Shown here in pieces: positions 6,786 to 55,100 of a stretch of 64,000 nucleotides of DNA (positions are counted from its first letter, which is position 1; each line of letters begins with the position of its first letter). The notes beneath the pieces are model-generated. The model saw nothing but the letters and a program-made list of their open reading frames with translations, did no database searches and was not told the DNA's origin. Both the position numbers and the translations under genes were made by a program. Origin of the DNA: a virus. Taxonomy: Duplodnaviria; Caudoviricetes. Location of the stretch: the IMG/VR virus record IMGVR_UViG_3300016476_001378. One strand, 5' to 3'.

Positions 6786-8379
<1,594 letters not shown>

Positions 8380-9071: not shown

Positions 9072-9447
9072 CGGACCCGGGCGGACTCGAACCGCCGTCT
9101 TACGTGCATCTTAAAAAAGCATCTACAAGCTTAGTATAAATTTTAATTTAATTAAAGAGGCCCCTTTATACTAGGTTCTCATTAACTAGCCCTGCTATAC
9201 TAATTGTTAATCTTAGAGCAGCAAATTAACAATTGTCAGCTATAAATAACGCAGAATTTCAGTCTAGCTGAAAACTTCATTCCACGGCTGAGTTAAATAC
9301 TCAGGCTGCGATCGCATACGCAGAAGCGTTGCGAGCTGTTGCAAAGTTATTGTTTGCATTTATTGTTTTCTTCGGGTTTAACGAGGCCACCGAACACCTC
9401 GACTTGCAGCTTAATCTCCCTGCCCGCAATCTACTCCAATCGAGCCC
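9072..9447 (-). ncRNA. ssrA: tmRNA (one-piece)
   Basis: 5' GGGCTCG pairs with 3' CGGGTCC, including G3-U70. T-arm GGCGG-TTCGAGT-CCGCC. Tag ORF 9357..9301 after AATAAAT reads ANNNFATARNASAYAIAA*. About 376 nt. Confidence 0.95.
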
Positions 9448-13835: not shown

Positions 13836-15155
13836 TTATATTATCTGTTCTAATCGCCCAGTTGAATCACCAATTTTTTCTTGTGGGATGCCTATTTTAT
13901 CTGTCATAGATAAAAATAGATTAGTCATTGGTGTACCATTATTAAATTTGTAATCTTTCCCAGATTTGATTTTGCCACCAGCATGACCTGCTACAAGAAT
14001 AGGAAGATCGTCGTGGTTATGTCTATCCCCGTCACAAATACCTGCGCCATAAACAACCATAGAGTTTTCCAACAAAGTTCTATCGCCTTCTTTGATGGAA
14101 TTCATTTTATCTAAAATGTATGCTAATTGTGTTGTATGGAAGGTATTTATTTTTCTCAAAGCTTCGAGCTTTTCTGGATTCCTTTGATGGTGGGACATTT
14201 CATGGTGTCCATCATTTACTCCAATCATTTTGTAAGCTCTATTTGAGCCTTCATTCGCAAACATAAATGTAGCAACTCTGGTGGAGTCTGTTTGAAAAGC
14301 TAGAACCATTAAATCGCCAAGAAGCTTGATGTGTTCTTCATAATCTGATGGAATCCCCTGGAGATTTTTAAGCTGTTTATAATCTGTAGATTCAGAAGTC
14401 ATCTTATTAGAAAATGCTATTCTTCTTTCAATCTCTCTGATACCAGTCATGTATTCATCTAGTTTAGCTTGATCTGTGCGCCCTAATTTTTTATTTAAAA
14501 TCTTAGCATCTTCCATGATAAAATCAAGAATGGATTTATCTTCTTGCATTCTCATAGCCCTTGAGATTGCACTCTCATTGGTATCGCCTTGGAATAGTCT
14601 TTCAAATAACAATTTGGGGTCAACTTCTTTAGCTACAGGTGTGCTTTCTGACCTCCAAGAGATAGAGTTAGAATAAGCACAAGAATAGCCCGAGTCACAG
14701 TCGCCCGCCAACCCACCTCTTTCACAACCAATTTCAATAGAGGCGAATCTTGTTTTGTCACCAATTTCGCGAGCAATGATTTGGTCAATAGAAATGCCAG
14801 ATTTAATATTGGCCCCTGAGGTTTTTCTTGGATGACAGCCTGTAAGCCAAGCAGCAGCAGATCTTGCATGGTCTCCAGGACCATCGCCAAGAGGGAAGGC
14901 ATTCTTTTGTGTCAAGCCTGACAAGACACTAAAATGACTTCTCAAGCTAGATAAAGGCTGTAAAGTAGAAGGCAGTGTTGAATTGCTTGGTATCCAATGT
15001 TCCATGTTGATACCATTTGGAACAAAGATAAATGCTGTTCTAATAGGGGCCTGAGGTGCGGAAGCATAGGCGCTATCAGGCATGATAGATTCCAAGAAAG
15101 GGAGTGCTAAAGTTACACCAAGGCCTTTCAAAACTGTTCTTCTACTTAAATACAT
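13836..15155 (-). CDS. DUF1552 domain protein with Tat-type N-terminus
   Basis: SRRTVLKGLGVTLALPFLES; R.AF..VPNG; GPGDHAR; SIDQ.IA; CDSGYSCAYSNSISW; P...FERLF; LAFQTD.TRV.TF; HHEMSHH; EGDRTLLENS; H.H.DLP. Confidence 0.9.
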   Translation of the reverse strand: MYLSRRTVLKGLGVTLALPFLESIMPDSAYASAPQAPIRTAFIFVPNGINMEHWIPSNSTLPSTLQPLSSLRSHFSVLSGLTQKNAFPLGDGPGDHARSAAAWLTGCHPRKTSGANIKSGISIDQIIAREIGDKTRFASIEIGCERGGLAGDCDSGYSCAYSNSISWRSESTPVAKEVDPKLLFERLFQGDTNESAISRAMRMQEDKSILDFIMEDAKILNKKLGRTDQAKLDEYMTGIREIERRIAFSNKMTSESTDYKQLKNLQGIPSDYEEHIKLLGDLMVLAFQTDSTRVATFMFANEGSNRAYKMIGVNDGHHEMSHHQRNPEKLEALRKINTFHTTQLAYILDKMNSIKEGDRTLLENSMVVYGAGICDGDRHNHDDLPILVAGHAGGKIKSGKDYKFNNGTPMTNLFLSMTDKIGIPQEKIGDSTGRLEQII

Positions 15156-18545: not shown

Positions 18546-20381
<1,836 letters not shown>

Positions 20382-24080: not shown

Positions 24081-24404
24081 TTATTTAATTCTTTTAATTT
24101 TGAAAACTGGCTTTTCTTCTTCAAATTTAAATTGCTCTACATGAGGTTCCATAGCCAAACTATCATCTACTTTATCTTCGTCTGGGTTCGGAACAATTGG
24201 ATTTAAATCTTCGAGCATTTTTAAATAATTCTGCTGATCAATCTCATGCTGATCTGCATCTTCAAAGGAGCGATCTACATTTAAATCTTTGAATTCATTG
24301 GCAATTCTAATAAAGAGGCTCTGAACAGCATCAGCTTGCTTCAATAAACCTTTATCTTCTAAAGAAATAATTATGTTATCTAATTCTGATAAAATTGAGT
24401 CCAT
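24081..24404 (-). CDS. Acidic hypothetical protein with shared N-terminal helical tag
   Basis: MDSILSELDNIIISLEDKGLLKQADAVQSLFIRIA. Confidence 0.7.
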   Translation of the reverse strand: MDSILSELDNIIISLEDKGLLKQADAVQSLFIRIANEFKDLNVDRSFEDADQHEIDQQNYLKMLEDLNPIVPNPDEDKVDDSLAMEPHVEQFKFEEEKPVFKIKRIK

Positions 24405-24414
24405 TGTTTTGTCC

Positions 24415-25149
24415 TTACTTTAATAAACTTGTGACTGAAGGTGAACTCCAGAATTTGCATGACCAGTATTTAGCTGTTGTTTTGTCCTTGGCTCTTGGGT
24501 CTGTATCACAATTGTGGCGAGCTCTGAAATTCTTTCTTCTATTAGGGTCGTCGCGCTTGATACTAAGGTTTGGATCGCCGAATGTTACTTTTACGATGTT
24601 GCCTTTGTCATTTTTGACATAAACTGCAAATTTTTTGGGGCCGCCTGGTGTTCTAAATGGCTTATTAAGTTTTACATTACCCGGCTTCTTTGCAGCAGTT
24701 CTATGTTTCATTGACATTTTAGTAAAATCAACGCCTGGGAAAAGATTATTAAGCAAGGTTTCTTTTACATGCTGCTTGCATTTGCATTTGCTGTCTTTGC
24801 AAACACAGTGCATACCCTTCATTTGGAGAGTACCTTTGCACTCTGGACAATCAATGTTACCTATACCAACTCTATGAAGAAATTCTTCTATTTCATCCTT
24901 CATGTCGATGGTACAATCGCAGTCATCATCACCACAATTACAGAGGCCATCTTCCATGTCCATCTCACCACCACATTCTGGACATTTAACACCTTCTTTT
25001 TCAAGAAGCTTTAAAATCTTGCCAACCATAGGGTCTTCATCAGACGCAATTCTATTCAAAGAAGCGGTGACTATGTCAGCTTCATTATAAAAACCCATTT
25101 CATCTAATTTGTCTGCGATTGCAGCTAAACGAACTGCTATTTGATACAT
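24415..25149 (-). CDS. Tag plus two zinc ribbons plus basic DUF6321-like domain
   Basis: N-terminal tag; two CPEC...C.C repeats; KLNKPFRTPGGPKKFAVYVKN...VKV.FGDP..SIKRDDP.RR.NFRARHNC...YWSC.FW. Confidence 0.8.
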   Translation of the reverse strand: MYQIAVRLAAIADKLDEMGFYNEADIVTASLNRIASDEDPMVGKILKLLEKEGVKCPECGGEMDMEDGLCNCGDDDCDCTIDMKDEIEEFLHRVGIGNIDCPECKGTLQMKGMHCVCKDSKCKCKQHVKETLLNNLFPGVDFTKMSMKHRTAAKKPGNVKLNKPFRTPGGPKKFAVYVKNDKGNIVKVTFGDPNLSIKRDDPNRRKNFRARHNCDTDPRAKDKTTAKYWSCKFWSSPSVTSLLK

Positions 25150-25176
25150 TGTTTGTCTCCAAAACAGAAGATTCTT

Positions 25177-25716
25177 TTATAAATCTTTAGTTAAATCGTT
25201 TATTAAGTCCTGGGCCTCTAAATTAATTTTATTCCAAAGTTTATCTTTTTCTTCACCCTCTGGAAGTCTTTTTGGATAAACTTTTAAGTCTTGGAGTTTT
25301 TGTTCCCAGACATTAGTTAATGTTTCCACCATAGCCTTTTTAATGCGACCACTAGTCTCTGGGCTTAAATGATTATCTTTTTCACCAATGTGTAAGCTAT
25401 CCAATACATACTGCTTACCAATGTATTCAGGTGAATTATCAATCCAAATGTGAATTTGATAACCAGCATTGACAGCTGCTTCTCTTTTCCACTGACTGCC
25501 CGCAAATACAACTTGTATGTCATTTAAATTGTATTCTTCAGAAAAGGTTTTTAGTGTTTGATAAACTTCTGCTTCCCATTTACCAGTTTTGCTTCTGCCT
25601 GTAACAATTATTACATTGTGGCCAGCTTCTTGAATAGTTTTAAAAATCTTGCCAAAGCAATTAAAATCTGCTGTGATTGTGTCATCGTAATCAACGCCAA
25701 AATTTAAAATAGACAT
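25177..25716 (-). CDS. HAD-superfamily (phage-type) hydrolase
   Basis: GVDYDDTIT, IIVTGRS, K, IWIDNSP. Confidence 0.75.
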   Translation of the reverse strand: MSILNFGVDYDDTITADFNCFGKIFKTIQEAGHNVIIVTGRSKTGKWEAEVYQTLKTFSEEYNLNDIQVVFAGSQWKREAAVNAGYQIHIWIDNSPEYIGKQYVLDSLHIGEKDNHLSPETSGRIKKAMVETLTNVWEQKLQDLKVYPKRLPEGEEKDKLWNKINLEAQDLINDLTKDL

Positions 25717-25771
25717 ACTTACCTCTCTAGATTTTGTACAAATTATTAATAATAAAAGGGGGCTTTAATTT

Positions 25772-26656
25772 ATGAGTGAAAAATGGGGCACAGCCTGTGG
25801 TGTTTGGGGCGATATAATTGTTGGTCTTGGACTTTTTCTTGACCGAGTTGGTAAGGGTAACATTTTATATCTTGGCAACAGTGATGAGATTGTTGAATTT
25901 TTAGAATGCCAGCCTTTTATTAATAAAGTTAAAAAATTACCTTTGCCAGAGGAAGAATGGAAGAGGTATTGGATCTACACAGTTTTTAATTATGACTGGC
26001 AAAAAGATCCAGGCTACAGTATTAGGCCTATCGACCCCTTTTTAAGAATGGGTTACAGAAGTAGCGAAGTAGAAATCACTCATCTACACTATGATGTTTG
26101 TGACCCCAATCATCCAATGTATCAATGGCATGGGGTTAAGCTGCCCCAACACATTGAAGACTGGGCGGATGAAGAAGCCAAGAAGCTACCAGAGAATTTT
26201 TATTTATTTCAGCCCTATAGCTTCAACAGCAACAATCCCCACGATCACTGGCCTATCTGGCCTGAATTATGTAATGCCATTACCACAAGAACTAATAAGA
26301 AGCTGGTATTAATAGGACACAAATGGTATCCAGAGATTGAAAGAAGATCATCAGTGATGTTCAAATCTCCTATGATAGCTGATTACTATAGTAATGTGCC
26401 CAGCATGATGCACATTTTTGCACTTGCAAAAAGATCTGTTGGTGTAATTACAACAAGTAATAGTTTAGCCCACTGGTGCCAAATTGCTGACATACCTTGT
26501 ACGGTAATTTGCAATAGAAAAAGTTCAAGGCCAGACTATATCTTTAGAAGAGTATTAGTCTGGCCCACTTTAAAATTAGTCAACTTTGACGATGATCTAG
26601 AGACTGCTTATAATGCTGTTGGAGAAGGTGTTTTCTCTGCAGAAAAATTTATTTAG
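25772..26656 (+). CDS. GT9 (heptosyltransferase)-like glycosyltransferase
   Basis: GVWGDII, FQPYS.....W..W.EL, LVLIG, VITTSNSLAH...IADIP.TVI. Confidence 0.6.
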   Translation: MSEKWGTACGVWGDIIVGLGLFLDRVGKGNILYLGNSDEIVEFLECQPFINKVKKLPLPEEEWKRYWIYTVFNYDWQKDPGYSIRPIDPFLRMGYRSSEVEITHLHYDVCDPNHPMYQWHGVKLPQHIEDWADEEAKKLPENFYLFQPYSFNSNNPHDHWPIWPELCNAITTRTNKKLVLIGHKWYPEIERRSSVMFKSPMIADYYSNVPSMMHIFALAKRSVGVITTSNSLAHWCQIADIPCTVICNRKSSRPDYIFRRVLVWPTLKLVNFDDDLETAYNAVGEGVFSAEKFI

Positions 26657-27527
26657 AGGCTTCTCTATTTAAGAAACAGCTTCTGTGGTCTGCATTATGG
26701 AGAAGTTCTGCTTCTTTTGTCTTAGGCTCAACAGGCACTCCCCATTCTCTCCTGCCATGGTGTGAGAGAATCAAATGCAAAATGTGTTCTCTCTTATCTT
26801 GTGGAAAATCAGGAATTTTGACAATTTCTTCATGGACCCAAAAAGCACTTGAACAGAGATGGGGAATCAGTTTGCCGCTTTCTGAGATAACATAATCATA
26901 ATTGTCATTGACTTGAATTTCATCAATCTTGCCAATGTCATGCAACAAGGCTGCTGCTATAAGAACATCATAATCAAGTTTATCATAGATCTTTAAATCA
27001 TGCCTGATAAACTTACATACTTCAACTGTGTGGTCTAAGAGACCATGGGTATAAGCATGATGAATGCCTTTTGCTGCTGGCCACATGACAAATTTCTCTC
27101 TTAAGCGGCCTTGGGAACCTAAAAGATTAGCAACCATCAATTGAATAGAAGTATCTGTAATGGTCTCAATAAGTTTATCAAGTGTGGCTACCAATTCTGG
27201 ATAAGGCCTGGATGCTATTTGAAAATAAGGAGATAAATCTTCTGGTGGTGATACTATGTCAACGCTTTGTGCCTTGACATTTACCATGCCCTTAAAAGAC
27301 TCAACCTTGCCCTTGATTCTGACAAACTTATTCTTTTCTAAATCAGTTACAATGTTTTTGCATGCTGCTTCTGGAAAATCAAATAGCATAACAGACATTT
27401 CACCGCTCAGATCTTTGATTATAAGCTTGACCCAATTATTGCCATTGTTATTCTTGTGCTCATAAAAAGAGACGAAAGAAATCATGTCCACTGCATTACC
27501 AGGGGCTAAATCGGCTATACGAACCAT
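26649..27527 (-). CDS. yhaM: YhaM/Cbf1-like 3'-5' exoribonuclease (OB fold plus HD)
   Basis: L...D.SG OB fold; PAAKGIHHAY.HGLLDHT; ALLHDIGK; HLILSHHG..EWG.PV.PKT.EA.LLH.AD. Confidence 0.9.
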   Translation of the reverse strand: MVRIADLAPGNAVDMISFVSFYEHKNNNGNNWVKLIIKDLSGEMSVMLFDFPEAACKNIVTDLEKNKFVRIKGKVESFKGMVNVKAQSVDIVSPPEDLSPYFQIASRPYPELVATLDKLIETITDTSIQLMVANLLGSQGRLREKFVMWPAAKGIHHAYTHGLLDHTVEVCKFIRHDLKIYDKLDYDVLIAAALLHDIGKIDEIQVNDNYDYVISESGKLIPHLCSSAFWVHEEIVKIPDFPQDKREHILHLILSHHGRREWGVPVEPKTKEAELLHNADHRSCFLNREASK

Positions 27528-27540
27528 TTATAGATACTTC

Positions 27541-28023
27541 CTATTTTGTTGTTAATTTCATATTATTATAGGTTGTATATTTAGAAATGAGTATTCCGTC
27601 AAGATGATTAATTTCATGCTGAATAACTCTTGAAGCCAGGCCATGATAGCGTTCTTCAAATTCATTGCCGTATTCGTCTTGGGCATGAACATCAATCCAT
27701 TTGGGGCGAGAAATATTAACAGTTAAACCTGGTAGCGATAAGCAACCTTCCCAGTCTTCTGCAAATTCTTTGGAATGATCATAGATAATAGGATTGACTA
27801 AGATTTTAGGAGGCTTAGGGTATTCCTTGGCAGTTTCTATTGGCATGAATGCTATCATGCGTTTTAATTCTCCAACCTGAGGGGCGGCGATGCCCACACC
27901 ATTGTGCTGGAACATTAAAACTGTCATGTCTTCTGATAATTCCAACAAGCTAAAATCAAAATCAGTCACAGTTTTAGCTACTTTAGATAAAATGGGGTCT
28001 GGTGAATAAACAATAGTCCTCAT
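27541..28023 (-). CDS. def: Peptide deformylase
   Basis: GVGIAAPQVG, EGCLSLPG, QHEINHLDG. Confidence 0.96.
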   Translation of the reverse strand: MRTIVYSPDPILSKVAKTVTDFDFSLLELSEDMTVLMFQHNGVGIAAPQVGELKRMIAFMPIETAKEYPKPPKILVNPIIYDHSKEFAEDWEGCLSLPGLTVNISRPKWIDVHAQDEYGNEFEERYHGLASRVIQHEINHLDGILISKYTTYNNMKLTTK

Positions 28024-28058
28024 AGAATCTTTTTTATAACTCTGTGAGGACTTTCCTG

Positions 28059-28601
28059 TTAAATGGTAATGCCTTGCAATTCTATTTTTTGCTTCATAAG
28101 CTTTTCAGCCTTTTTACAAATAGAACTTACATTTTGATGAGAACATCCAAGGATTTGTGAAATCTCTGCTGTTGAATAACCCTCAATGTATTTCATAACA
28201 ATTATTTCTTTTTGTTTATCTGTTAATGTATTAAGCGCAACCGATAAAATCTGTCTTAATTCAATACTAAGATAATCAAAATCTTCAAAAGCACAATTTG
28301 ACAAGTCTTCCAAATCAATTCTTGTATTGTTATAAGTTTTTACGTGAGCAGGATAATAGATAATTCCAGTTTCTTTGGTAGAAAATTTTCTTACATGGGA
28401 AAGAATCATATTAAAAACATGGGTTGATAATTTTGCGCCCCTATTTTTATCATAAGATCTTACAGCATCTATAATGCCTATTTTTGCTACTTGGTATAAA
28501 TCATCAAACTCATTTCTGCCAGAGTATTGACGGGCAATTTTCTTAGCCATGTTATCAAATTGGACAAGTGCTTCTTTTTCAGCTACATTATTCATTTGCA
28601 T
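28059..28601 (-). CDS. Sigma-70 family RNA polymerase sigma factor (regions 2 and 4 only)
   Basis: DDLYQVAKIGIIDAVRSYD..RGAKLSTH (region 2); LT.KQKEII.MKY.EGYS..EISQILGCS.QNVS (region 4). Confidence 0.9.
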   Translation of the reverse strand: MQMNNVAEKEALVQFDNMAKKIARQYSGRNEFDDLYQVAKIGIIDAVRSYDKNRGAKLSTHVFNMILSHVRKFSTKETGIIYYPAHVKTYNNTRIDLEDLSNCAFEDFDYLSIELRQILSVALNTLTDKQKEIIVMKYIEGYSTAEISQILGCSHQNVSSICKKAEKLMKQKIELQGITI

Positions 28602-29175
28602 AAACCTCTTTGTTTTTTCTTGATTGGTTTTTCCAAATTTCTAAATCAAATTCTGCCATGTCTCTGTTTGATCTTTTTACATAATCTAAAAAGATCTTTT
28701 CAATATTTAAATACATTTTGATTGAAGAAGGAGTAGATTTTGGCACATTTATCCCTAACTCTTGTCTAATAAAATTAAGAATGTGCGTATCTAAAATGGC
28801 ATAATTTTGATTAGGTCTTGTATGGACAATAAAAAACCTACTTGTCTTAGGGCCTATACCATGGAAAGCTTCTAGCTCATCAGTTGAACATGTTTTTAAA
28901 TCTATACCTGATTTGGCTAGTTGGGAAAAAGTGGTTAGGAGTTTTTTATATTGTCCTATCTTAGAAGATTGAAGATTATCTAATAATGAACCTTCTTCAA
29001 GCATAAGATTAATTTTTTGAAAAGGAGAACCATTTGATTTATAAGATAAAAATGTTTCTAAATGCTTAGCCTGTATGTATGCTGTTTTACCTGCCACACA
29101 AGCGCAAAATAAAATAAGCTCTTCAAGCTCATCCTGAGTTCTGTTGTAATTTGTAATATTGTAAGGGTCTACCAT
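28588..29175 (-). CDS. HhH DNA glycosylase-like protein
   Basis: LEAFHGIGPKTSRFF...AILDTHIL...Y..IE..F...DL.IW; start trimmed to MVDPY. Confidence 0.75.
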   Translation of the reverse strand: MVDPYNITNYNRTQDELEELILFCACVAGKTAYIQAKHLETFLSYKSNGSPFQKINLMLEEGSLLDNLQSSKIGQYKKLLTTFSQLAKSGIDLKTCSTDELEAFHGIGPKTSRFFIVHTRPNQNYAILDTHILNFIRQELGINVPKSTPSSIKMYLNIEKIFLDYVKRSNRDMAEFDLEIWKNQSRKNKEVYANE

Positions 29176-29247
29176 GTTATTATTATGGTGCATCGACAGG
29201 TTTATAAGATTATTTTTTATAATGACTCTTATAGGAGGGTGATTCAA

Positions 29248-29631
29248 ATGAACAAAATCGCTAAATCAGTTAAGCCAGACGAAATGGAAGGTGGACACAA
29301 GTCCCCACCTAAAGGATACCCACAAAAGGAAAGCAAGTATGCTGATCCTGTGAACTTTAAGTACCCTATTGACACAGAGAAACACGCTCGCGCAGCTTGG
29401 GCGTACATTCACCAAAAGAGAAACAAGAGCAAGTATTCTACAGAGGAATTTAATTACATCTGCGGAAGAATTAAAGCAGCATTAAAGAAATTTAAAGTTG
29501 AAATTGAAGAAGAACAAAAGAAGAAAGCAAGCATCTTAGAGGGCTTGCACAGAACAGCTTCAAGATTAGAAGATCTTGGTATGTTTAAAGAAGCTGAAGT
29601 TCTCAATGACACTTTTGATAAGTTAATTTAA
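29248..29631 (+). CDS. Basic DUF6582-like domain plus C-terminal helical tag
   Basis: GGAGG SD; YADPVNFKYPIDTEKHARAAW.Y...RIKAA.KKF.VEI; C-terminal ILEGLHRTASRLEDLGMFKEAEVLNDTFDKLI. Confidence 0.75.
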   Translation: MNKIAKSVKPDEMEGGHKSPPKGYPQKESKYADPVNFKYPIDTEKHARAAWAYIHQKRNKSKYSTEEFNYICGRIKAALKKFKVEIEEEQKKKASILEGLHRTASRLEDLGMFKEAEVLNDTFDKLI

Positions 29632-29640
29632 GAGGGTAAT

Positions 29641-30018
29641 ATGAAACAAGTAGTCAGTAGCATTTGTGAAACTATAAATGAACTAGAAAGTAAGAACCTT
29701 TTTAAAGAGTCTGATACACTTAGGGGCATTCTAGTAAAACTTGTTACTGCAGACTTGCGTGATTGGTTTCAAGAAAAGTGGGTTGATGTCCGCCGAAAGA
29801 AAAAAGATGGCGGATATCATCCTTGTGGCAGAGGAGACATAAGTAAAGGCAAAAAGCCAGTATGCACCCCTGCTAATAAAGCTAAAAATCTTTCAAAAAA
29901 AGAACGAACTCAAAGAATGAAAGAAAAAGCTAGAAAAGAACGCGAACCAAATCCAGACAAAAAACCTAATGTAACACAATATTCAGAAGGTGCTGGTGGT
30001 AAATCCAATATATCTTAA
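29641..30018 (+). CDS. Tag plus basic Cys-containing phage domain
   Basis: N-terminal tag, then LRDWFQEKWVDV...PCGR...PVC.PA.KA..LSK.E. Confidence 0.75.
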   Translation: MKQVVSSICETINELESKNLFKESDTLRGILVKLVTADLRDWFQEKWVDVRRKKKDGGYHPCGRGDISKGKKPVCTPANKAKNLSKKERTQRMKEKARKEREPNPDKKPNVTQYSEGAGGKSNIS

Positions 30019-41202: not shown

Positions 41203-44200
41203 TTATCTCTCCTCTACAATAAGTTGTACAAAGAAGTTCGCATGGGTAGTGTTTAAGCTTGTAAAGTTCACTCTAAGTTTAGTGCCAGAACTTAATGTTG
41301 TAGTGGAAAAACCTGTTGAAGTAAACTCATAAGTAGAAGCACCAGTGACACTTAAAGCTGAAGATAATAAGTTTGTTGCAGAAAAAGCTGTAGTACCAGT
41401 GTAGTACTCAACTTGAACAGCCGATGTGCCTGAAGATGGAGTCTCAACTCTGACATTTAATTCTCTAGGTACATAATAACTTGGATTGCCTGCATTGTCA
41501 GAATTGTCAGGTAATCTGAGTATAACTGAATCTGCTCCAGTTGTAGCCGGGGTATAACCTGTACAGAATGTAAGAAGGACAGTCTTGTGGGCGCCAGCAA
41601 CTTGATACCACGAAGTTGTGGATGCAGCCATGAATGTGTGTGCTCTATTGATTGATAATAACTCAGCGTTTGCAGAGTCATCTATCGTTGAGCCAGATTG
41701 TGGATAAATATAAATAGGGTTTGTTGACCTATTGACAACTGTTATCATTCTACCCGTTGTTGCGGCTGGGAGAATAACACCATTGAATGGTTCAGTGGTT
41801 GCAGAAGATGAGGTGACTACATTGTAATCACTAGTTAGGGCTGTGGCAGTGCCGGATGTAGTGCCTGCTGCAGTCACAGAAGCAGATGTGGTTACAACTG
41901 CTGCTGATAATGTTTTATTTGTAAGTGTCTGAGTTGCATCAGTGCCAACCATGGTGGTTGTTGCATCTGGAATCGTAATAGTTCTTGTGTTGCCAGCTGT
42001 AATACTCGCTGCATCAAATTTAAATTTCTTAGTGGTTGTAGTTGAGTTCTGGAATGTTACACCTGTATCAGATAAACCTGTGATGCTTGTAAAACCACTA
42101 CTATCAACTGTAAGAACATCTCCACCAGAAGTTGACACAGTGAAGATACTTGCACTCTGTGATGCAGCTCCAACTACCTTTAATGGGCTTGTAGACGCAC
42201 CTTGTGCTGTGATTGTAAGATGTGTACCAGTTGCTGAATAAACAAGGGCTGGTGCAGATGCAGTAGTTGTGACACCTGAGTAATAAGCCAATTGGTTTGC
42301 AGTACCAGAACTAACTGTACCACCGCCACCACCGCCTGTAGCATCATTTGCCCATGCCAAAGTAATATCTGAACCAGAAACAGCCGAGACGGATAAAATC
42401 TGACTTGTAGATGGAGCAGTTGTTGGCAGTGTATAGTTAAAGTCACTTGTTTGTGCTCCAGCCTTAAAGAATGAAGCGTTTGTTCCTGCGCCAGCACCAG
42501 AATAAGCATAAAGGCCCAGGCCCTTAGTAGTGTCCAAAGCCATTCTGTTGGTAAAGGACGCAGTTGTACTGGTTGTGCTTGAACTCTTCCAAACTAATGC
42601 ATGACTAGGAGTAGCTGCAGTTGTTTGCAATTCCTCTCTAAATTTTGCATAATAACTAGCACCAGCGGTCCAGAATCTACCTGCAAAATCTACTGCAGGG
42701 GAATAATGGTTTGGTATAGAGGTACTTGGTGCAGTATTATTTGCTAATTCCAACGCAGCAGTTGATGTAGTTTGAATGCTAGTAGATGCAGTCAATGTCA
42801 AAAGCGCAGTAGTATAATTATAAGCAAAGTACGAAGTACCAGCAAACGTTGTACCACCACTGTTGTACTGGACATTAGTATCTGAACCACCTGGTACAGC
42901 ACTAGAGCCAACGCCAGATGAAGCAATTGTAATTGTGCCTGCACCATGTGTAATTGTAATGTTGGAACCTTGAACTAATTGCTTGTACTCTAAGGCAGAA
43001 CCACCACTGTTCATGCCAAGGATGTAGTTTCCAGTACCACCTGATGTTAAACCTGTTCCACCATTTGCAAGACCTAATGTCTGAGACCATTGAGGTGCTG
43101 AACCTGTAGAGGTGAGGAAATAACCAGACGTCGCTGCTATGCCTAACTTAGTAAGAGCAGTAGTTGAAGATGTAGAATTGTAATATAAAATGTCGCCATT
43201 AGAATAAGTTGATTGCCCAGTTCCACCATCTGCAAGAGCTACGTCTGTCCCACCTGCTCTATAAACATAAGAGCCCCCAATTGTTACTGCTGTTGGTATG
43301 TCAGTAGAGACAGATGGTACACCAGAACCATTTGTTACTAAAACACCAGAGACAGTAGTTGCCAGTGTTGCAAGAGCACTACCAGTATAATAAATGAGGC
43401 CATTAGTAGTTGCGAATGATGAAGTTGCTGTACCACCATTTGTCAATCCAAGAATGCCAGAAACAGCATTACTTGAGCCTAAACTAATTGCACCCCAAGA
43501 TGGAGCACCAGTTCCACCACCAGATTTTAAAACTTGATCTGTAGAACCAGCAGCAGTTACAAGAACTGATGTAGCAGCATTGCCATAAAGAACGCCATAC
43601 TGGGTAAAGGTTGTAGTTCCCAAGCCACCATTAGCAAGTGGTAATGTTCCTGTTACCATGCTTGTCAAATTAACTTGGGCAAAACTTGGAGCACTGGCAC
43701 CACCGCCAACCAGGACTGTAGTTGTTGCACCTGTTCCTAATGTTGCAAGTTTTGAGTTGGCATTATCAAAATAAACAATGGCATTAGATGTAGTTAATGA
43801 TGTTGTTCCAATACCACCTCTGCCGATAGCTAAACTACCTGTCCAACCCAGAGCATGAGTGTTTGTGCCAGTATTAGTTGTAATTGTTACGTTTGTATCA
43901 TTTGAGAATGTCTGCGAAGCACCTGTTGCAGAGTTCAATGATGTAATACCACCACCAGATGTGCCTAACTGGTCTGTTGCCCATGACAGGGTAACAACAC
44001 CTGTGGTAGAAGGTGCAGAGGCAGATAATAATTGGCCAGAACCTGGAGCGCCTGAAGGCCAAACATAAGTGTAAGATGTAGTAATTGCATCTGGGGCTTT
44101 AAATGCAATGTATTCAGATCCATTTGCTGCTAATTCTGAGAATCTTAATTCAAATGTGTTGCCCGCAGATGCTCCATGTGGCCCCAAATTGATGTTTGTT

Positions 44201-47200
44201 GTGCCCAGTGTTACTAAACTAGTGCCTGAGTTATTTTGAACATCAATGTAGTTGCCAGTTTGTGACGAAGAACCGCGAATTACAAGACCCTTGCCAGATG
44301 CTGTGCCTGTCAATATTCTCAAAGCGGCTGCTTCAGTTAAGGTTGCATTAGTTCCAGCTGTTGGTGCACCATCAATTTGGAATGTTGCAGCATTTGTTAC
44401 TGTACTAGCACCTGAGAAGGCATAGGTGGCAGGAGCAATTCTGAATGTTCTAAGTGTTGCAATAGCACCTGTTGCAAAAGTTTTAGTTTGACCAAAGTTG
44501 AAATAAACATCACTGTATTCTGTAGCAGTATTAAGTGCTGTATGTGCTGCGCCTGTTACTAAAAGTGCTGTTGCGGGTGTTGTAGCAGATGTTGCCAATG
44601 ATGTAAATGTCGCTCCACCAAATGCACCTACGGAGCCTAGTACTGTACCTGCAGATGTTGAATAAATCTGGAAAAGATCTGCAGTCTGTGATGTGGCGCC
44701 GACTAATCTTAAAGGAGATGTGGCAGCACCCTGGGCAGTAATTGTAAGATGCTGGTTTGACGCAGAGTAAGCCAGAGCTGTAGCGGTTGTTACTGCGCCT
44801 GTTGTAGTTGCACCACTTGTTAAAATTGTGTTTGTAGTAAATGATGATGTTCCTGTGCCACCATTTGTGACTCCAAGAATGCCTGTTACAGCGTTGGAAC
44901 TTCCAAGCGGCAGAGCAGCAAAAGCAGGGGCCCCAGTTGTTCTTGCAAGCAATGGAGCATCGGTAGAGCCTGCACCTGTTGAAGCATACTGGGATGTTGA
45001 TGTAGCAAAGATCACGCCCCATTGAGTTGGTGCTGTAGATGTGCCTGTTCCACCATAGCCGACAGCTATTGTAGTTCCATTCCATGTGCCAGAATTGATT
45101 ATGCCTGTACTACTTATGTTAAATACAGTACCACCAGAAGTAGCAACTGTAAATAAATCTGCTGTTTGGCTAGTTGCTCCAACAAGTTTTAATGGGTTGT
45201 TTCCAACTGCCTGAGCAGTAATTGTAAGATGAGATGTAGTTGTTGCAGTGGAATAAACCATACTTGCAGCAGATGCTGTAGTAGTTGTGCCAGAATAATA
45301 AGCTATTTGGTTTGCTGTACCAGATCCAACAGTACCTGAGCCACCTGATGTTGCGTTAATTGTAATAGAACCATTTCCATTGGTGATAGAAATGTTAGTA
45401 CCAGCCGTTAATGTTGCCTTAGTTAGCGTGTTGCCTGAAGAGTTACCAATTAAAAGTTGGCCATCTGTGTATGTTGTTTGGCCTGTGCCGCCATTTGTAA
45501 CTGCAAGAGTACCAGAAACAGCATTGCTTGAGCCTAAACTAATTGCGCCCCAGGAAGGCGCGCCAGATCCACCGCCAGACTTCAATACCTGATCAGTAGA
45601 ACCAGCAGCAGTATAAGCCAAAGCTGTTGTAGATAAACCGTAAGTTACACCATACTGTGTAGGTGCAGTGGATGTGCCTGTACCACCTCTGCCAACAGCT
45701 AATGTGCCCGACCAGCCTAAAGTATGTGTTGATGTTACAGAGCTGATTGTTACGTTTGTATCATTTGCAAATGATTGTGAAGCAGCACTTAAGCCGTTAA
45801 GTGATGTAATGCCACCACCGGATGTACCCAATTGGTCTGTTGCCCAAGACAATGTAACAACACCACTAACAGGCGCAGAAGCAGATAATAATTGACCAGC
45901 AGATGGAGCACCAGAGGGCCAAACATAGGTGTAATTTGTGGTAACAGAATCAGGCCCCTTAAATCCAATGTAATTGGAACCATTGGCGGCCAATTCCATG
46001 AATCTTAATTCATAGGTGCTGCCAGCAGTAGTGCCGTATGGGTATAGAGCAAGGTCAGTATTGTCAAATCTTGCTCTTTCAACAAGTGTTGTAGTACCCG
46101 TGTCATTAGTTTTAATTGATAAGGCGCCAACATAAGTTGTACTTCCAGCATCTGAAAGAATACCATCTAATCCAATGGTATTTACAACTGTACCACCTGC
46201 ATGCTCTTGCCTATAAGAAATTCTAGCACCAATACCTGCAGCAGCAGTTCCTGATGTTGATCTTTCAATATTAAGAACATCTGTAACAGTGTTAGTGGTA
46301 GCATCTTCAATTCTTTTTGCGCTTAAAGGAAACCCTTCTGTTGCACTATTGACATTAAAACCAACTCCAGTTGATTCATCACAGCCAAATCCAAAGTATC
46401 CAAATCCGTCATATCCTCTACCAATGGACCAGAAATATCTATCTGCTGTATTGTTACCATTGGTTCTAAAACCTGTTCGCAAACCTCTTTGTCCAGCGTA
46501 ACCGCCAGTGATGGTCATGTTGCCGCCGTTAGCAACATAGAACAAATCGTCTTGGTTTGAAGATGTACCTAGGATTTGGAGTTTAGCACCAACACCACTA
46601 CCAGTGGATGCGACATTAATTAAACTTGTGCCAGAAGAGTTTTGAACATCAAATAGGTTTGCAGATTGTGATGCAATGCCTTTTAAGAGGAGAGGTGTAT
46701 TACCTACAGCTTGCGATGTAATAGTCAAATGCGCAGTTGTTGTTGCACTAGAATAAATTAATGCGGCAGCACCACCGAATGAGCTACTGTTATTAAACTG
46801 AATTTGCCCATTAGAGCCACCTGGAGATGCTGCTACAGTTCCCCAAGAAGCGCTGGTGCCATCTGTGGTTAAGTACTTACCACCATTGCCTGTTTGGGCA
46901 GGCAATAATGCGTTGATGGCGCTTGTGGCTGTTGTTGACCCCGTACCGCCGTTGGAAATTGGTAGAGTTCCTGTTATAGCATTAGTTGAGCTTAAATTAA
47001 TGGCCCCCCAAGAAGGTGCTCCTGATCCACCACCAGATTTTAATACTTGATCTGTTGAACCAGCCGCAGTTACAAGAACTGATGTTGCGGCGTTGCCATA
47101 AAGTATACCATACTGAGTAAATGTGGTTGTTCCTAAACCACCATTGCCCAGTGGCAATGTACCAGTGACCATATTTGTCAAGTTGACTTGAGCAAAACTT

Positions 47201-50200
47201 GGGGCACTAGCTCCGCCGCCAACTAAAACTGTAGTTGTAGCACCTGTGGCCAAAGAGGTAAATCTACTGTTACCATTATCAAAATAAATGAGGCCATTGT
47301 TATTAGCATACGATGTAGTGCCTGTGCCGCCTTTGTTTAAAGCGATTGTACTTGCACTCCAAGTACCTGTTGTGACAGTTCCCAGTGTATCTATAGAAGT
47401 TTGGCCTACATAAGTTGCAGAAATTTGTATAGTATCTGTGTTGACTGTAATACCTGTCCCAGCTCCAATGTCAATGGTATTACCAGTTTTTGTGAGACCT
47501 GCGCCTGCTGTAATCTGTCCTGCACCAGAGAATTGAGTGAAGTTGATAGCATCAGAACCAATAGCGATTAATGTCGTATGTGTATCAGTGGTACAAACCC
47601 AAGCAGAATCTGCATAAAGCGAACCTGTTTGCACGAACGTAAACGTACCGCCCTCTAATTCAATATTGTCATCTGTATCAGTTGCTCTTGTAAGCTTCCA
47701 CTTAGAGCCAACTCCACCAACAGAAGTGACAGTATAAATACCATTCATTACATTGGTGCCACCAGTAGGTGTTGTGGTCACACCATTGATGTTGTATGTG
47801 GTTGTAGAAGCACCTGACGCGACGAGAACTCTATCGCCAACTATCAAACTTTGACTATCAAAGTATGTTGTAGACAGTGCTTCATTATTTACAGATTCAA
47901 TGTAAGAACCAGACGCCGAAGAGCCACTTGTTGTACTAGGGGCTTGAGTTTGGAAGTATAATACTGATGTACCAATCGCCGCGAGTCCAGAAGTCGCCTT
48001 TACAGACTCATGAAGGTCCAAACCTTGCTGGAATGAGTCAACATAGTATTTTGTTGCAGCATCTTGTGGCTGCGTGGGTTCACCAACATTTTGTATTCTG
48101 TTGCCAGCAAAACTAATTGTACTATTGGTTGTATTAGATGTATTGCCAATAGTAATTGCCGTTGTAGATGTAGCTACTCCACCAGTTCCAATATTTATAG
48201 TTTTTGTCTGGCCAGAAGACAAAACGCCTGTCGCAAAATTAAATGTTGCAGTAGAAGTAGTCCCAAACACAGTTCCTGTGGTCGCCGCTGCAAATGCAGT
48301 TACTGTTGTTGGCTCTGCAAGGAATGCCACTGTACCAGTGGTGCCTGTAAAGTTTGTGGCATTGGTAAATGTCACAGTAGTGTTTCTGATTGTTGTGGTG
48401 CCAGTTGAAGAACCTATAGTCAATGCTGTAGCAGAACCAAAGATCGTTGCTGTGGTGGCTGCTCCAAACACAGCAAGCGAAGCAGGATTGGCAGCTGAGA
48501 AAACAGTGGCTAAACCAGATGAACCACTAATAACAGTTGCATTCGGGAACGAAACTGTTGTGTTGCTGATTGTTGCAGTTCCAGTTGAAGAACCGAGACT
48601 TAAAGCAGTGGCGGCACCAAAGATTGTTGCTGTTGTAGCGGCTCCAAACACAGCCAAAGAGGCTGGGTTAGCGGCTGAAAAGACTGTAGCAAGACCAGTA
48701 GAACCACTAATGACAGTTGCATTGGGGAATGAAACTGTAGTATTGCTGATTGTTGCAGTTCCAGTCGAAGAACCCAAGCTTAAAGTTGTTGCTGAAGTTG
48801 CGCTAAACGTAGTAGCATTATTTGCCGTAAATGACGAACTTAAAACAGCAACTGTACCACTTACTGCAGTTGTGCCTATGTTTGATGTTGCCATGTTGAC
48901 AGTGAATGTGCCTGTAGAAGCACCCACATTAACATTCGAAGCGCCAGCACCTGTGCCACCAGTTCCTATGTTGACCGTCTTTGCGTTGGCCCCATTATTA
49001 CCAGATGCTAAATTTAATGTAGAAGCAGCAGTTGTGTTAGACAATGTAAGTGATGTGGATTCACCAAACATTGTAATAGCAGCTGTAGTTCCTGTAATGG
49101 ATGTTACATTTGGCAACGCCAATGTTGCATTTCTTACGGTTGCAGTGCCTGAAGTAGTTCCTAATGTTAAAGCTGTTGCAGAGCCAAAAATTGTTGCTGT
49201 AGTAGCCGCCCCAAACACAGCAAGAGATGCTGGGTTTGCAGAAGAAAAGACAGTTGCGAGACCGGATGAGCCATTAATTGTTGTAGCATTAGGGAAATCT
49301 ATAGTGGCATTTCTAATGGTACCTGTACCCGATGTTGCACCTAAAGTAAGAGTTGCAGCAGAACCAAAAATTGTTGCTGTAGTAGCGGCTCCAAATACTG
49401 CGAGAGATGCAGGATTGGCTGCCGAAAAGACTGTGGCCAAACCAGAAGAGCCACTGATGGTAGTAGCATTAGGGAAATCTATAGTAGCGTTTCTAATCGT
49501 ACCAGTACCAGATGTTGCACCTAATGTTAAAGTTGTTGCTGCTCCAAAAATTGTTGCAGTAGTAGCGGCCCCAAAAACTGCCAAAGAGGCAGGGTTGGCT
49601 GCTGAAAAAACTGTTGCCAGGCCAGATGAACCGCTAATTGTTGTAGCATTAGAGAAATCTATAGTGGCATTTCTAATAGTGCCTGTACCCGATGTTGCTC
49701 CCAGTGTAAGGGTTGTAGCAGAGCCAAAAATTGTTGCTGTTGTGGCCGCGCCAAATACTGCAAGAGAAGCGGGGTTAGCTGCTGAAAAGACAGTTGCAAG
49801 ACCAGTAGAACCACTAATGGTTGTAGCATTAGGGAAATCTATAGTAGCATTTCTAATCGTACCAGTACCAGATGTGGCCCCCAAAGTAAGGGTAGTAGCA
49901 GAACCAAATACGGTTGCTGAGGTAGCACTGCCGAGGAATGTGACAGTTCCAGATGTTCCTGTAAATGAAGTAGCGTTAGGGAAAGCAACAGTGGTATTAT
50001 TAATTGTTGCCGTGCCTGTTGAAGAACCAAGCCCCAAAGAAGTGGCACCACCACCTATATTAAGTGTGGTCACATTGGCATTTAATACATTTAAGGAGGC
50101 CGTGGCTGATGTAATGTCACCAGAAATAGCCAGTGCAGAAATGTTTGTAGTTGCTAAATAAGATGTACCCTGTACACCTATACCACCTGTAACTTTTAAT

Positions 50201-51869: not shown

Positions 51870-52127
51870 TTATTCCTTAACTAAAATTGATTCTGTGTAT
51901 TCCAGTAATTTTTCAATTATTGCTATCCTGATATCGCTTGAATTTTTACCTAGACTTGCGAAATCATCTCCACTTATTGTAAAGAGATTTTTCTCAATAA
52001 CATTTTTATTATAGTCCAGGAATGCGAAATACATTCGTATTCCTGTTTCTATATTAATGTTGCCTTCTTCTAGTTGTATCCAAGCGATATTCGGATTCGC
52101 TTCTCTAAATATTCTAAACACATGCAT
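51870..52127 (-). CDS. Small protein between fibre genes (possible assembly factor)
   Basis: 85 aa, coupled to both fibre genes. Confidence 0.6.
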   Translation of the reverse strand: MHVFRIFREANPNIAWIQLEEGNINIETGIRMYFAFLDYNKNVIEKNLFTISGDDFASLGKNSSDIRIAIIEKLLEYTESILVKE

Positions 52128-55100
52128 TACTGTTCGATTTCTAAAGGAGCATCGAGTCTTGAACCATGGATGATATAATCAACCTTGATAGACTTGAACT
52201 TCTTTACAAGGGCATTGCTTGACAATTCAATTATAAAGTAATTTTCTGTCTTTTCTACAATATGTACTGCATAATTACCCCAAGGTGTCAATTGAATTGT
52301 GTAATTTTCACCAACAAGTTTATGCCAATACTCTGGTAATTCGACGACAAGCTTGCCCTTACCTTCTACAGTACCTCTATGGTAGACACCATGTTCTGGG
52401 CCTTCAAGAACACCGTAGACAAGTCTCATACCTGGCTTAGTTGGGTGTTCAATATCAAAGCTCTTGGTTGTAGCTCTCAAGTTACCATTTGCATCAATAG
52501 AGAACTTATCTACCCCATTTAACTGGCCAACAATGATCTTGCCAGAAGTAGCACCTGATGGCACATTGATGTTAACAGCAGTGCCAGATGTCAATGATGA
52601 AGGGTTAACATAAAGCGCAGCAGCTGAACCTGTGCCAGTAGTAGTACCAGGTATCCATGTAAGCAATGAACCTGTCGCTAAAGCAGTTGTGCTAGAAGCA
52701 TAAACCAATGCATTAGCAGTAAACGAACTGTTCGATCCAGTACCACCATTGGTAGAAGCAAGAGTTCCACTTACGTCTGTGCCAAGAGCGACTTGTGAGA
52801 ATGTAACATTAGTGCCGTCTGTTCTAAGTACTCTATTTGCAGTTACGCCAGATGCCCATGACGGAACACCAGAAGAGTTGGAGACAAGAGCGGATGATGC
52901 ACTTGTTGCCAAACCACCAACTGTATCAGTTGCAGAAGCATAAAGAATGGTTCCTGCTGTATAGGTGGTAGCCATTGTGGCTGTTGACCATACTGGATAG
53001 TTACCTGTGCCAGTACCTGTCGATACAAGATGTTTATTGGCTGCTGCAGGAGCGACTGATAACAAACCTGTTGCTGCAGTTGAGCCAGCATAAACCACTC
53101 CGCCGAAGTTGTATGATGAGGTTCCTGTACCACCAGCGCCTACGGCAAGAGTTCCCGTTACAGCATTAGTAGAGCTAAGGTTAATTGCACCGAAGCTTAC
53201 GTTTGTGCCATTGTATCTAAGAACTGTGTCCACTGTAGATGCAGTAATGTCGGCAACGTTTCCTGTACCAGTGTCTGTTTTACCAATAACAGAGAATCCA
53301 GCACTTTGTCTCAACATCGCATTGGTTACTTTGTTCGTTCCAATTGCAGTTGTACCAGTACCATTGATTGTTACGTCACCAGTAACTGTTGTCCAAGCAA
53401 CTGCAGTACCGGTTGTAGCAGACAATAATAACTGTCCAGATGTTGCGGCACCCGTAGTTACAAGTTTGCTACCATCATAATAAGCAAGACCATTTGTTGT
53501 TGCGAATGATGAAGTTCCTGTACCGCCATTGCCAACTGGAAGAGTACCAGAAATAGCAGCAGCCTGGTCCAGAGCAACTGTACCCCAAGTTGGCGCACCT
53601 GAAACACCAGCTACGAATACCTTGTATTGTGTCGACGTACTTGTTAATGTAACTGTGCCAGTGCCATTACCAACAAGCACAGCATTAGATGTTAATGACG
53701 AGGTTCCTGTACCACCATTTCCTACAGGCAAGATGCTTGAACCAACTGCGTTTGAAGACGCAAGGTTGATTGAGCCAAAGGAAGGAGCACCTGTGCCAGC
53801 ACCGGACTTCAACACTTGATCAGCAGAACCTGTTGCCGTTACAAGGATTGATGTACCAGCATTGCCATAAAGAACACCATACTGCGTAAATGAAGTGGTC
53901 CCCAAACCGCCATTTGCGAGCGGAAGAGTTCCAGTAACCATGGTTCCTAAGTTAACTTGAGCGTATGTTGGCAAGTTACCAGCACCTGCACCAACAAGAA
54001 CTGTAGTTGCTGCACCAGTTGTTAATGTTGAAAGTCTAGTGTTGCCATTGTCAAAATAAATGAGGCCATTATTGCTTCCATAAGTAGTAGTGCCTGTACC
54101 ACCTCTAGCAAGCGCTATAGTACTTGCAGTCCAAGTACCTGTAGTAATAGTACCGAGTGTGGTGATGGAAGTTTGACCCACATAAGTAGAGGCAATGTCA
54201 ATTGCATCAGCGCTTACAGAAATTCTATTTGCTGTACCAACAGCATCAATTGTATTCCCGTTCTTTGTAAGACCATCGCCAGCATTGATCTGTCCTGCAC
54301 CAGAGAATTGAGTAAAGTTGATAGCAGCAGAGCCAATAGCAATTAATGTTGTATGTGTGTCAGTGGTACAAACCCAAGCAGAATCTGCATAAAGCGAACC
54401 TGCTTGCACGAACGTAAACGTACCACCCTCCAACTCAATATTGTCATCTGTGTCTGTTGCTCTTGTAAGTTTCCATTTTGAACCAGCACCACCAACGGAA
54501 GTAACAGTATAAATACCATTCATTACATTGGTACCACCAGTAGGTGCTGTAGTTACACCATTGATGTTATATGTAGTTGTGGAAGCGCCAGATGCAACAA
54601 GAACTCTATCACCAACTATCAAACTTTGACTATCAAAGTATGTTGTAGACAGTGCTTCATTATTTACAGATTCAATGTAAGAACCAGACGCCGAAGAGCC
54701 ACTTGTTGTACTAGGAGCTTGAGTCTGGAAATACAATACAGATGTGCCGATTGGTGCCAAGCCTGAAGTCGCCTTTACAGACTCGTGAAGATCTAATCCC
54801 TGCTGGAATGAATCAACATAGTATTTTGTTGCAGCATCTTGTGGCTGTGTAGGTTCACCAACGCTTTGAATTCTGTTTCCATTGAAGCTTATAGTACTAT
54901 TTGAAGTATTAAGAGCAGCACCAATGTAAATAACAGTAGTTGATGTCGCTACCGCATTGCTACCGATGTTAATTGTTCTGGTATTACCAGAACCAAGAGT
55001 ACCCGCACCAAAGTTAATTGTAGAGGTTGCGGTGGTGCCAAACATTGTGCCTGTAGTGGCACCTGCAAATGCAGTTACTGTTGTTGGTTCTGCGAGGAAT

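Follow-up and report, generated by a model that had tools for sequence, protein, structure and literature searches.

The question raised by this locus is why four otherwise unrelated proteins of a large phage carry the same short helical segment, and what that segment, here called the tag, would do for them. The original prediction placed it in four open reading frames of the window (the whole 64,000-nucleotide stretch analysed), and all four are present, with a similarity that profile HMMs confirm. Gene A (24081-24404, minus strand) encodes 107 amino acids, with the tag at residues 1-37 (24294-24404, minus strand; independent HMM E 8.6e-10; aligned with the other copies) and an acidic tail that, judging from the open reading frame and the AF2 model, is probably disordered: helices at residues 2-17 and 21-41 have pLDDT 78-89 and the remainder 47-58. 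Gene A has no family match in Pfam, PHROG, or NCBIfam. Gene B (24415-25149, minus strand; 244 amino acids) has the tag at residues 1-37 (25039-25149, minus strand; independent HMMs E 1.3e-6 and 3.6e-8), followed by an acidic, cysteine-rich zinc-ribbon region (residues 51-108 give weak zinc-ribbon matches in a family profile search) and a basic C-terminal domain; its cargo domain (residues 147-232; 24454-24711, minus strand) is phrog_7595 (E 4e-14). Gene C (29248-29631, plus strand; 127 amino acids) has a GGAGG-type ribosome-binding site before its start at 29248, a DUF6582 domain at residues 28-89 (E 2.9e-21), as had been proposed, and a C-terminal tag formed by the final 34 residues (29527-29628, plus strand; independent HMM E 2e-6). 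Gene D (29641-30018, plus strand; 125 amino acids) has the most divergent of the four tags at residues 1-37 (29641-29751, plus strand; independent HMMs E 2.5e-5 and 7e-5), then a basic cargo domain that is phrog_23735 (residues 38-106, E 3.5e-13) with a weak match to DUF5872. A DUF6321-like cargo had also been proposed, and family searches gave no DUF6321 match at E≤1. Neighbours of the tagged genes in the window encode a thioredoxin, a deformylase, a sigma factor, a glycosylase, and RuvB.

Protein identity among the four window copies is only 14-32%. Leave-one-out HMMs regained A, C, and D (E 1e-4, 3e-3, and 0.03) and missed B (E 1.5). With HMMs that contain no window sequence, built either from copies on other contigs alone or from metagenome representatives alone, A-D were the top four among the 1,227 six-frame ORFs of the window (E 9e-10 to 7e-5); the next-ranked frame reached only 0.67. 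The predicted profile similarity is thus significant in the window, and relatives carry copies too. At the nucleotide level the window copies are 42-49% identical and their third-codon positions are near random, which excludes a DNA repeat as the origin of the tag and indicates that selection works on the protein. Four related phage contigs of 166-379 kb (G001-G004) have 7-10 copies each at E≤1e-5, nine further contigs have 3-10 each, and a profile search of 1.84 billion proteins matched 1,583 metagenomic protein clusters. No cultured carrier was found among GenBank phages, no copy was found in phage G, and the tag was absent from cellular genomes in an exact-word scan. The source of the window is itself an uncultured freshwater giant phage.

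Structure prediction makes the tag a helix-turn-helix of 36 residues, with a disordered linker behind it. In AF2 models the two helices have pLDDT 78-94 and the linker after them falls below 50; conservation ends sharply at tag positions 34-36. Both helices have wide hydrophobic faces. Several polar positions on the surface are 83-95% conserved, and this pattern of residues suggests that the conserved polar surface is a binding face. The tag starts within about 12 residues of the protein start in 119 of the 132 top full-length copies, most lying at residues 4-39, and N-terminal placement holds overall for about 85-90% of tags, with a conserved Met-Asn-Lys before the tag at the extreme N-terminus in 69 copies; some copies are internal or C-terminal. 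One tag per protein is usual, and rarely there are two or three, 100-250 residues apart. Several subtypes occur together in one genome, including a C-terminal subtype on two proteins of about 1,000 amino acids, next to which lie arrays of small proteins with N-terminal tags. For the large C-terminally tagged proteins, searches of Pfam, PHROG, and the PDB gave no match. As modelled, the tag would be a self-folding module joined by a flexible linker to unrelated proteins.

No Pfam, PHROG, or NCBIfam family matches the tag. A profile search against all PDB chains at E≤10 gave no match and no scaffolding protein, Foldseek returned nothing for the AF2 model, and the only matches in the ESM Atlas were unnamed viral clusters. 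Matches to HP1451_C and Amphi-Trp are weak and below the cut-offs of those families. The nearest sequence neighbour is a single repeat unit of the TPR_10/12 type: TPR_10 has the best Pfam score (E 0.04; 14.4 bits, the cut-off being 27.5), and hhalign gives 97.7% probability against TPR units, a test that is partly circular because the target units were themselves chosen by the tag HMM. Like the kinesin-light-chain-type units of TPR_10 and TPR_12, the tag is a predicted helix-turn-helix in the same register, with about 11 of 22 consensus positions in common; unlike them, it is solitary, forming no tandem superhelix of three or more units, and it diverges after position 27.

That the tag is portable across unrelated proteins, as originally predicted, is strongly supported; its partners number in the hundreds, and the same cargo is found tagged in some relatives and untagged in others. 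For example, orthologues of the D cargo with 74% identity are tagged in G004 and untagged in G001-G003. Seven genes in a tandem array have tags that are 52% identical, but their proteins are otherwise unrelated. The B cargo, phrog_7595, occurs at more than 600 IMG/VR loci and is untagged in many small aquatic phages, with tblastn matches in phages of Pelagibacter, Roseobacter, Flavobacterium, and Methylophilales and in spindle viruses of Nitrosopumilaceae. The cargo was expected to be mostly basic, which describes three of the four window proteins and fails for the family, where the non-tag parts have a median pI of 5.4 and only 25% exceed pI 9. In two tagged proteins a GH108 muramidase follows a membrane or SAR-like segment, with the tag on the cytoplasmic side; in others PG_binding_1 follows a hydrophobic segment. 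One tagged protein has a weak match to Phage_T7_Capsid (E 1e-4).

Two sequence signals had been taken to accompany the tag. The motif AGG-N19-KAA, said to precede all four genes, lies upstream of B and C only, at differing distances, and upstream of 8 of the 70 window genes; as a shared promoter it was rejected as unspecific. The motif [K/R]-x-[A/S], said to mark the domain borders, was counted 20 times in the four proteins, where about 12 would be expected; some of these lie inside the tags and folded domains, and D is without it at the tag end. In this loose form it is too frequent to mark borders and was dropped. Across the family, the tag end itself is more constrained: it reads [KR]-x-[AS] with a hydrophobic middle residue in 134 of 138 copies (97%), Q follows directly in 45% of the 138, and the strict form [KR]-x-A-[S/A/Q] is present in 47 (34%). 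Q is one of the two residues most enriched at P1' of this candidate site. The non-tag parts of tagged proteins have no enrichment of the strict motif, and most internal and C-terminal tags are without a candidate site on the cargo side. Tag position 36 is E or D in about 51% of copies, without conforming to an L/I-x-E site, and positions 34-36 read A-x-E in about a quarter to a third. Structural constraint by itself could account for the conservation of K/R32 and A34 of the tag.

The strict motif also recurs in head proteins of the relatives. Their head genes were found only via Portal_Mu and phage G proteins; none was detected by the Peptidase_S77, Peptidase_S78, Terminase_6C, Gp23, or Phage_capsid profiles, and the PF03420 (Peptidase_S77) search, whose positive control likewise matched nothing, gave no match in G001-G004. 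In G004, G002, and G003, [KR]-x-A-[S/A/Q] exceeds its frequency in shuffled sequences 4-7 fold (z 4-6) in the portal, a giant gp19-like protein, and an acidic scaffold-like protein, and is enriched only in those three head proteins; control regions have 0-1.9 per 1,000 amino acids. Gp19 of phage G is annotated as a head maturation protease (10.1101/2024.12.16.628780). The gp19-like and scaffold-like proteins have no match in Pfam, PHROG, or the PDB, and no tag was found in the scaffold-like protein. The head module holds only a minority of the tagged genes; in G004, the head and structural block (112-163 kb) and its surroundings contain only two of about ten.

Taken as an address, the tag, resembling one TPR_10/12-type unit, would bring many phage proteins to one binding partner, and very probably it does dock varied cargo onto some common partner. 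The likeliest destination would be the interior of the assembling prohead, where a maturation protease of the phage G type may cut at the conserved K/R-hydrophobic-Ala that closes the second helix and so release the cargo. Loading into the head followed by cleavage is plausible, and the whole statement, docking with prohead destination and release by cleavage, is put forward tentatively, at somewhat less than an even chance. The near-constant tag end and the enrichment of the strict motif in head proteins favour it; the presence of that motif in only 34% of tags, the mostly missing sites at internal and C-terminal copies, the lack of enrichment in the cargo parts, the several coexisting subtypes, and the location of most tagged genes count against it. 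The most specific form of the proposal is rather doubtful: that in huge phages like phage G a TPR-derived hairpin docks at least ten unrelated proteins per genome in the prohead, that these are released by a protease of undescribed specificity for K/R-x-Ala-(Ser/Gln/Ala), and that the tagged arrays are a fast-evolving arsenal of injected proteins.

Several known systems resemble parts of this proposal. Encapsulin cargo-loading peptides and PKS/NRPS docking domains are short terminal peptides, at either end, that bring diverse cargo to one partner; their sequences and structures differ from those of the tag and the likeness is one of analogy only. The capsid targeting sequence (CTS) of T4 is a peptide of about 10 residues on unrelated, often small and variable proteins, encoded, as most tagged proteins are, away from the main cluster of head genes. 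It has no folded structure, is always N-terminal, and is cleaved after Glu (L/I-x-E) by the gp21 (Peptidase_S77) protease. The tag is like the CTS of IPI-III and Alt in being a short, mostly N-terminal peptide on unrelated proteins with a conserved candidate protease motif after it, but it is a folded 36-residue hairpin, found also at internal and C-terminal positions, its candidate site is K/R-x-A, and its packaging is conjectural. The CTS of T4 internal proteins is named in PMC9026906 and PMC10052503. In P22, the C-terminal helix-turn-helix of the scaffolding protein, 36 residues long, loads fused cargo into procapsids (PMC9962691). This coat-binding domain (residues 268-303) shares with the tag its length, its two helices with a short turn, and its portability; however, the PDB profile search found no sequence similarity between them, and in P22 one scaffolding protein alone has the domain, at its C-terminus, whereas the tag is spread over many genes. 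In giant phages, many head and ejection proteins carry an N-terminal propeptide that is cleaved off at one short, fixed motif (PMC10052503). The substrates of SPN3US gp245 combine such a propeptide with A-x-E, which some tags also read at positions 34-36, but the SPN3US propeptides are dissimilar in sequence to one another whereas the tags are alike.

The tagged lysins bear directly on the destination: being signal-anchored, they would be expected to be exported rather than packaged, which argues against head loading. Their cytoplasmic-side tags fit a docking or oligomerisation module that has no link to the virion, in which hairpins pair with each other, in the manner of stacked TPR units or of the paired docking domains of assembly-line enzymes, or bind a cytoplasmic or membrane-proximal hub and so build infection-stage complexes. 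Such a module would also make use of the wide hydrophobic helix faces and of the resemblance to a TPR unit, which normally stacks on its neighbours, and it is consistent with the two or three tags on some proteins, the non-structural gene neighbourhoods, and the distinct subtypes within one genome, including the C-terminal subtype on the two large proteins near the arrays. However, no TPR-array receptor (TPR_12) was found in the four genomes, AF2 shows no rigid arrangement in a two-tag protein (pTM 0.39), and the match between the tag-end motif and one enriched in head proteins is left unexplained. Docking away from the virion is possible but rather unlikely.

The position of the tag at the extreme N-terminus, after Met-Asn-Lys in many copies, and the occurrence of cargo with or without it would also suit a handle for quality control or timing, read by a chaperone or protease such as the phage-encoded Hsp70 conserved in this clade and controlling folding, stability, or release, including that of the signal-anchored lysins. 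An Hsp70 is encoded in the window at 18546-20336 and in six of the eight contigs searched, all six of those at least 36% complete having a match. This co-occurrence may reflect shared ancestry only, a folded amphipathic hairpin is atypical as an Hsp70 client motif, and the phage Hsp70 is without the EEVD-type tail for TPR binding. Such a handle is improbable.

Much less probable again is mimicry of a TPR unit, with the tag serving as a decoy or cap for host TPR proteins such as STAND/NB-ARC-TPR immune sensors. Among the best 150 of 1.84 billion proteins the sole non-tag ones are NB-ARC/TPR_10/12 repeat proteins, and the consensus sequences agree at about half of 22 positions, but that similarity may come from descent or convergence, and mimicry leaves unexplained the fusion to so many partners and the ten or more copies per genome. 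That the likeness is functionless, either chance resemblance among amphipathic helices or the side effect of a DNA cassette present in several copies, could appeal to the low identity of the window copies and to the failure of B in the leave-one-out test, but it is in practice already refuted by the independent HMMs with their clean gap before the next match, the 1,583 matching clusters, and the selection on protein seen in the third-codon positions. The upstream motif, being unspecific, also speaks against it.

Under the preferred reading, in which the tag docks varied cargo onto a common partner, perhaps in the prohead, the consequences reach beyond the four genes. Huge phages have hundreds of genes annotated without function, and a single tag, on at least ten proteins per genome and in about 1,600 clusters overall, would sort a large share of them into one class of proteins destined for the same place. 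If that place is the head, the tag would list the proteins injected with the DNA and would offer a compact natural handle by which foreign proteins could be packed into very large capsids. If it is another hub, the tag would mark an undescribed infection-stage complex.

Four ORFs in the window carry the shared segment of about 36 residues, here called the tag, and their remaining regions are mutually unrelated. ORF A (24081-24404, minus strand, 107 aa) has an N-terminal tag and an acidic tail, and ORF B (24415-25149, minus strand, 244 aa) has an N-terminal tag followed by zinc ribbons and a basic phrog_7595 domain. ORF C (29248-29631, plus strand, 127 aa), whose start codon has a good ribosome-binding site upstream, has a DUF6582 domain (E 2.9e-21) and a C-terminal tag (29527-29628); ORF D (29641-30018, plus strand, 125 aa) combines an N-terminal tag with a basic phrog_23735 domain. 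B abuts A and C abuts D, giving two small operons. The original prediction had described these tag-sharing ORFs from the sequence, and they are confirmed as described and much extended here. Leave-one-out profiles made from the window copies recovered A, C, and D (E 1e-4 to 0.03) and did not recover B, so that the window-internal evidence for similarity, taken alone, is only moderate. The decisive test uses profiles containing no window sequence, one built on 32 copies taken from related contigs, the other on 109 representatives from metagenomes: with both, A, B, C, and D are the top four among 1,227 six-frame window ORFs (E 9e-10 to 7e-5), and the fifth-ranked ORF has an E-value of 0.67 or worse. 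DNA identity among tag copies is 42-49% with third-codon positions near random, so the conservation is at the protein level, and a DNA cassette as its source was rejected.

The neighbors of these four genes are non-structural (thioredoxin, HD/OB-fold nuclease, peptide deformylase, a sigma-70-type factor, Ogg-type glycosylase, and RuvB). Elsewhere in the window are a phage-encoded tmRNA gene (9072-9447, minus strand; ARAGORN), with a tag peptide ending in AYAIAA, and a full-length Hsp70/DnaK (18546-20336, minus strand; Pfam E 7e-251), which is found in six of eight related contigs, including all that are at least 73% complete. The ammonium transporter Amt (6786-8063, minus strand; E 6e-120) and an HXXSHH/DUF1552 protein next to a 945-aa ORF (13836-15155, minus strand; E 5e-105) have no homologue in the related contig G004 and are of cellular type, unusual in a phage. 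Two giant ORFs, of 3,554 aa (41203-51867, minus strand) and 1,726 aa (52127-57307, minus strand; no Pfam match), have partial counterparts among the G004 proteins at 263-273 kb and probably encode tail or fibre proteins.

The largest tag subfamily has the consensus RQIxASLNKIANELDNxGLYKEANxxTxVMxKLAQE, and the information content of the alignment drops sharply beyond positions 34-36. AlphaFold2 models the tag as a helix, a three-residue turn, and a second helix (pLDDT 88-94 in a two-tag protein and 78-89 in A), followed by a linker with pLDDT below 50. The polar surface positions N8, N12, D15, E22, and T27 are 83-95% conserved, which exceeds the needs of a bare hairpin and suggests a binding face. 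No significant match to the tag was found in Pfam, PHROGs, NCBIfam, or PDB sequences, nor with the tag model in Foldseek, and neither the family libraries nor the literature searched contain the module. The only non-tag proteins among the top 150 matches are NB-ARC proteins with 42-residue TPR_10/12 repeats, every one of which aligns to tag positions 3-27. Profile-profile comparison gives a probability of 97.7% against TPR repeat units that were themselves chosen by the tag profile, and the best direct Pfam match is TPR_10 (E 0.04). The tag is best read as TPR-like but solitary, lying outside the repeat family as defined; it is probably derived from a TPR unit.

Among the 132 top copies with a full-length tag, 119 have it at the protein N-terminus, 69 of these with an exact Met-Asn-Lys preceding it, and in a minority it is internal, C-terminal, or multiple. 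A distinct C-terminal subtype occurs on two proteins of about 1,000 aa and is kept in three contigs. The two proteins are encoded next to each other (about 1,000 and 910 aa; L163:8141-13853 in G002; L159/L160 in G012; L157:15652-18666 with L158:1-1463 in G013, where the second ORF spans L157 into L158), neither matches a known family, and the pair adjoins arrays of small N-terminally tagged genes.

The tag has been encountered only in related huge-phage contigs, whereas the cargo domains of both B and D are widespread without it; the basic C-terminal domain of B (24454-24711, minus strand) forms a gene of its own in phages of Pelagibacter, Roseobacter, Flavobacterium, and Methylophilales and even in Nitrosopumilaceae spindle-shaped viruses. 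IMG/VR records of 166, 316, 358, and 379 kb, the last rated complete, have 10, 14, 18, and 13 tag matches at E<=1 (7-10 each at E<=1e-5), and nine more contigs have 3-10 apiece, often in tandem islands, with ten on one 30-kb fragment. Searched with the tag profile, 1.84 billion representative proteins yielded 1,583 clusters at E<=1e-3, of which 199 reach E<=1e-10; tag-matching proteins are named "hypothetical protein" by their sources throughout, and no carrier was found in searches of cultured phages, including phage G. Among the tag partners are GH108 muramidases and PG_binding_1 domains preceded by a hydrophobic segment, as well as zinc ribbons, FHA, AP2, and DUF5872, and the majority are sequences without any match. 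One DUF5872-like tagged gene (L004:5533-7062 in G002; protein P0012) is split by an insert of about 330 aa that begins with Cys, ends with His-Asn, weakly matches Hint and intein families, and is probably an intein. The cargo had been predicted to be mostly basic; this holds in the window only, since across the family acidic sequences make up half of the non-tag parts and basic ones only a quarter. Within one array of seven genes, tag identity is 52%, and outside the tag the proteins are unrelated. The D cargo orthologue is tagged in the window and G004 and untagged in three relatives, and the GH108 lysin carries the tag in two of five cases, so the tag is an optional add-on, gained and lost. 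The untagged D orthologue in G001 (L001:9938-10327) retains a remnant of where the second tag helix begins (F-T-K-E-A-D) directly ahead of the cargo domain, which suggests decay of the tag there.

The head genes of the relatives are of phage G type (major capsid protein 48% identical, portal 29%), and a gp19-like domain lies inside a protein of about 1,400 aa; gp19 of phage G has been called a head maturation protease (preprint 10.1101/2024.12.16.628780). Genome-wide in G004, the six proteins with the largest excess of [KR]-x-A-[S/A/Q] (the strict motif) all lie at 125-139 kb (L124), including the portal (8 sites observed, 2 expected), the gp19-like protein (15 and 5), and an acidic scaffold-like protein (7 and 2). 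The pattern is the same in G002 (130-139 kb, L165-L166) and G003 (42-55 kb, L167-L168). The excess is 4-7 fold (z 4-6) only in these three proteins and a few neighbors, S and Q both show about 5.5-fold enrichment after [KR]-x-A, and the density in control regions is 0-1.9 sites per 1,000 residues. The strict motif is a candidate cleavage code of the maturation protease. Of 138 tag copies, 134 have [KR]-x-[AS] at their end, 34% fit the strict motif, and Q comes next in 45%; the G004 head operon contains one tagged gene.

The motif in head proteins and at tag ends gives circumstantial support to the original prediction, by which the tag would load cargo into the head and be cleaved there. The P22 scaffolding protein, in which a 36-residue helix-turn-helix loads cargo (PMC9962691), is a precedent for an element of this kind. 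Against head loading, structural reasons alone could account for conservation of the motif residues in the tag, two thirds of tags lack the strict motif, and the cargo-side site is mostly absent from internal and C-terminal copies. No strict-motif enrichment was found in the cargo parts of tagged proteins, most tagged genes have non-structural surroundings, and several tag subtypes coexist within one genome. Tagged muramidases have a positively charged stretch followed by a membrane or SAR-like segment, which predicts that they are exported across the membrane and not packaged. Taken together, these points make docking to a hub, or pairing between hairpins, a serious rival. Head loading with cleavage is tentatively kept as the leading single mechanism. 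The segment is very likely a portable docking tag that binds a common partner.
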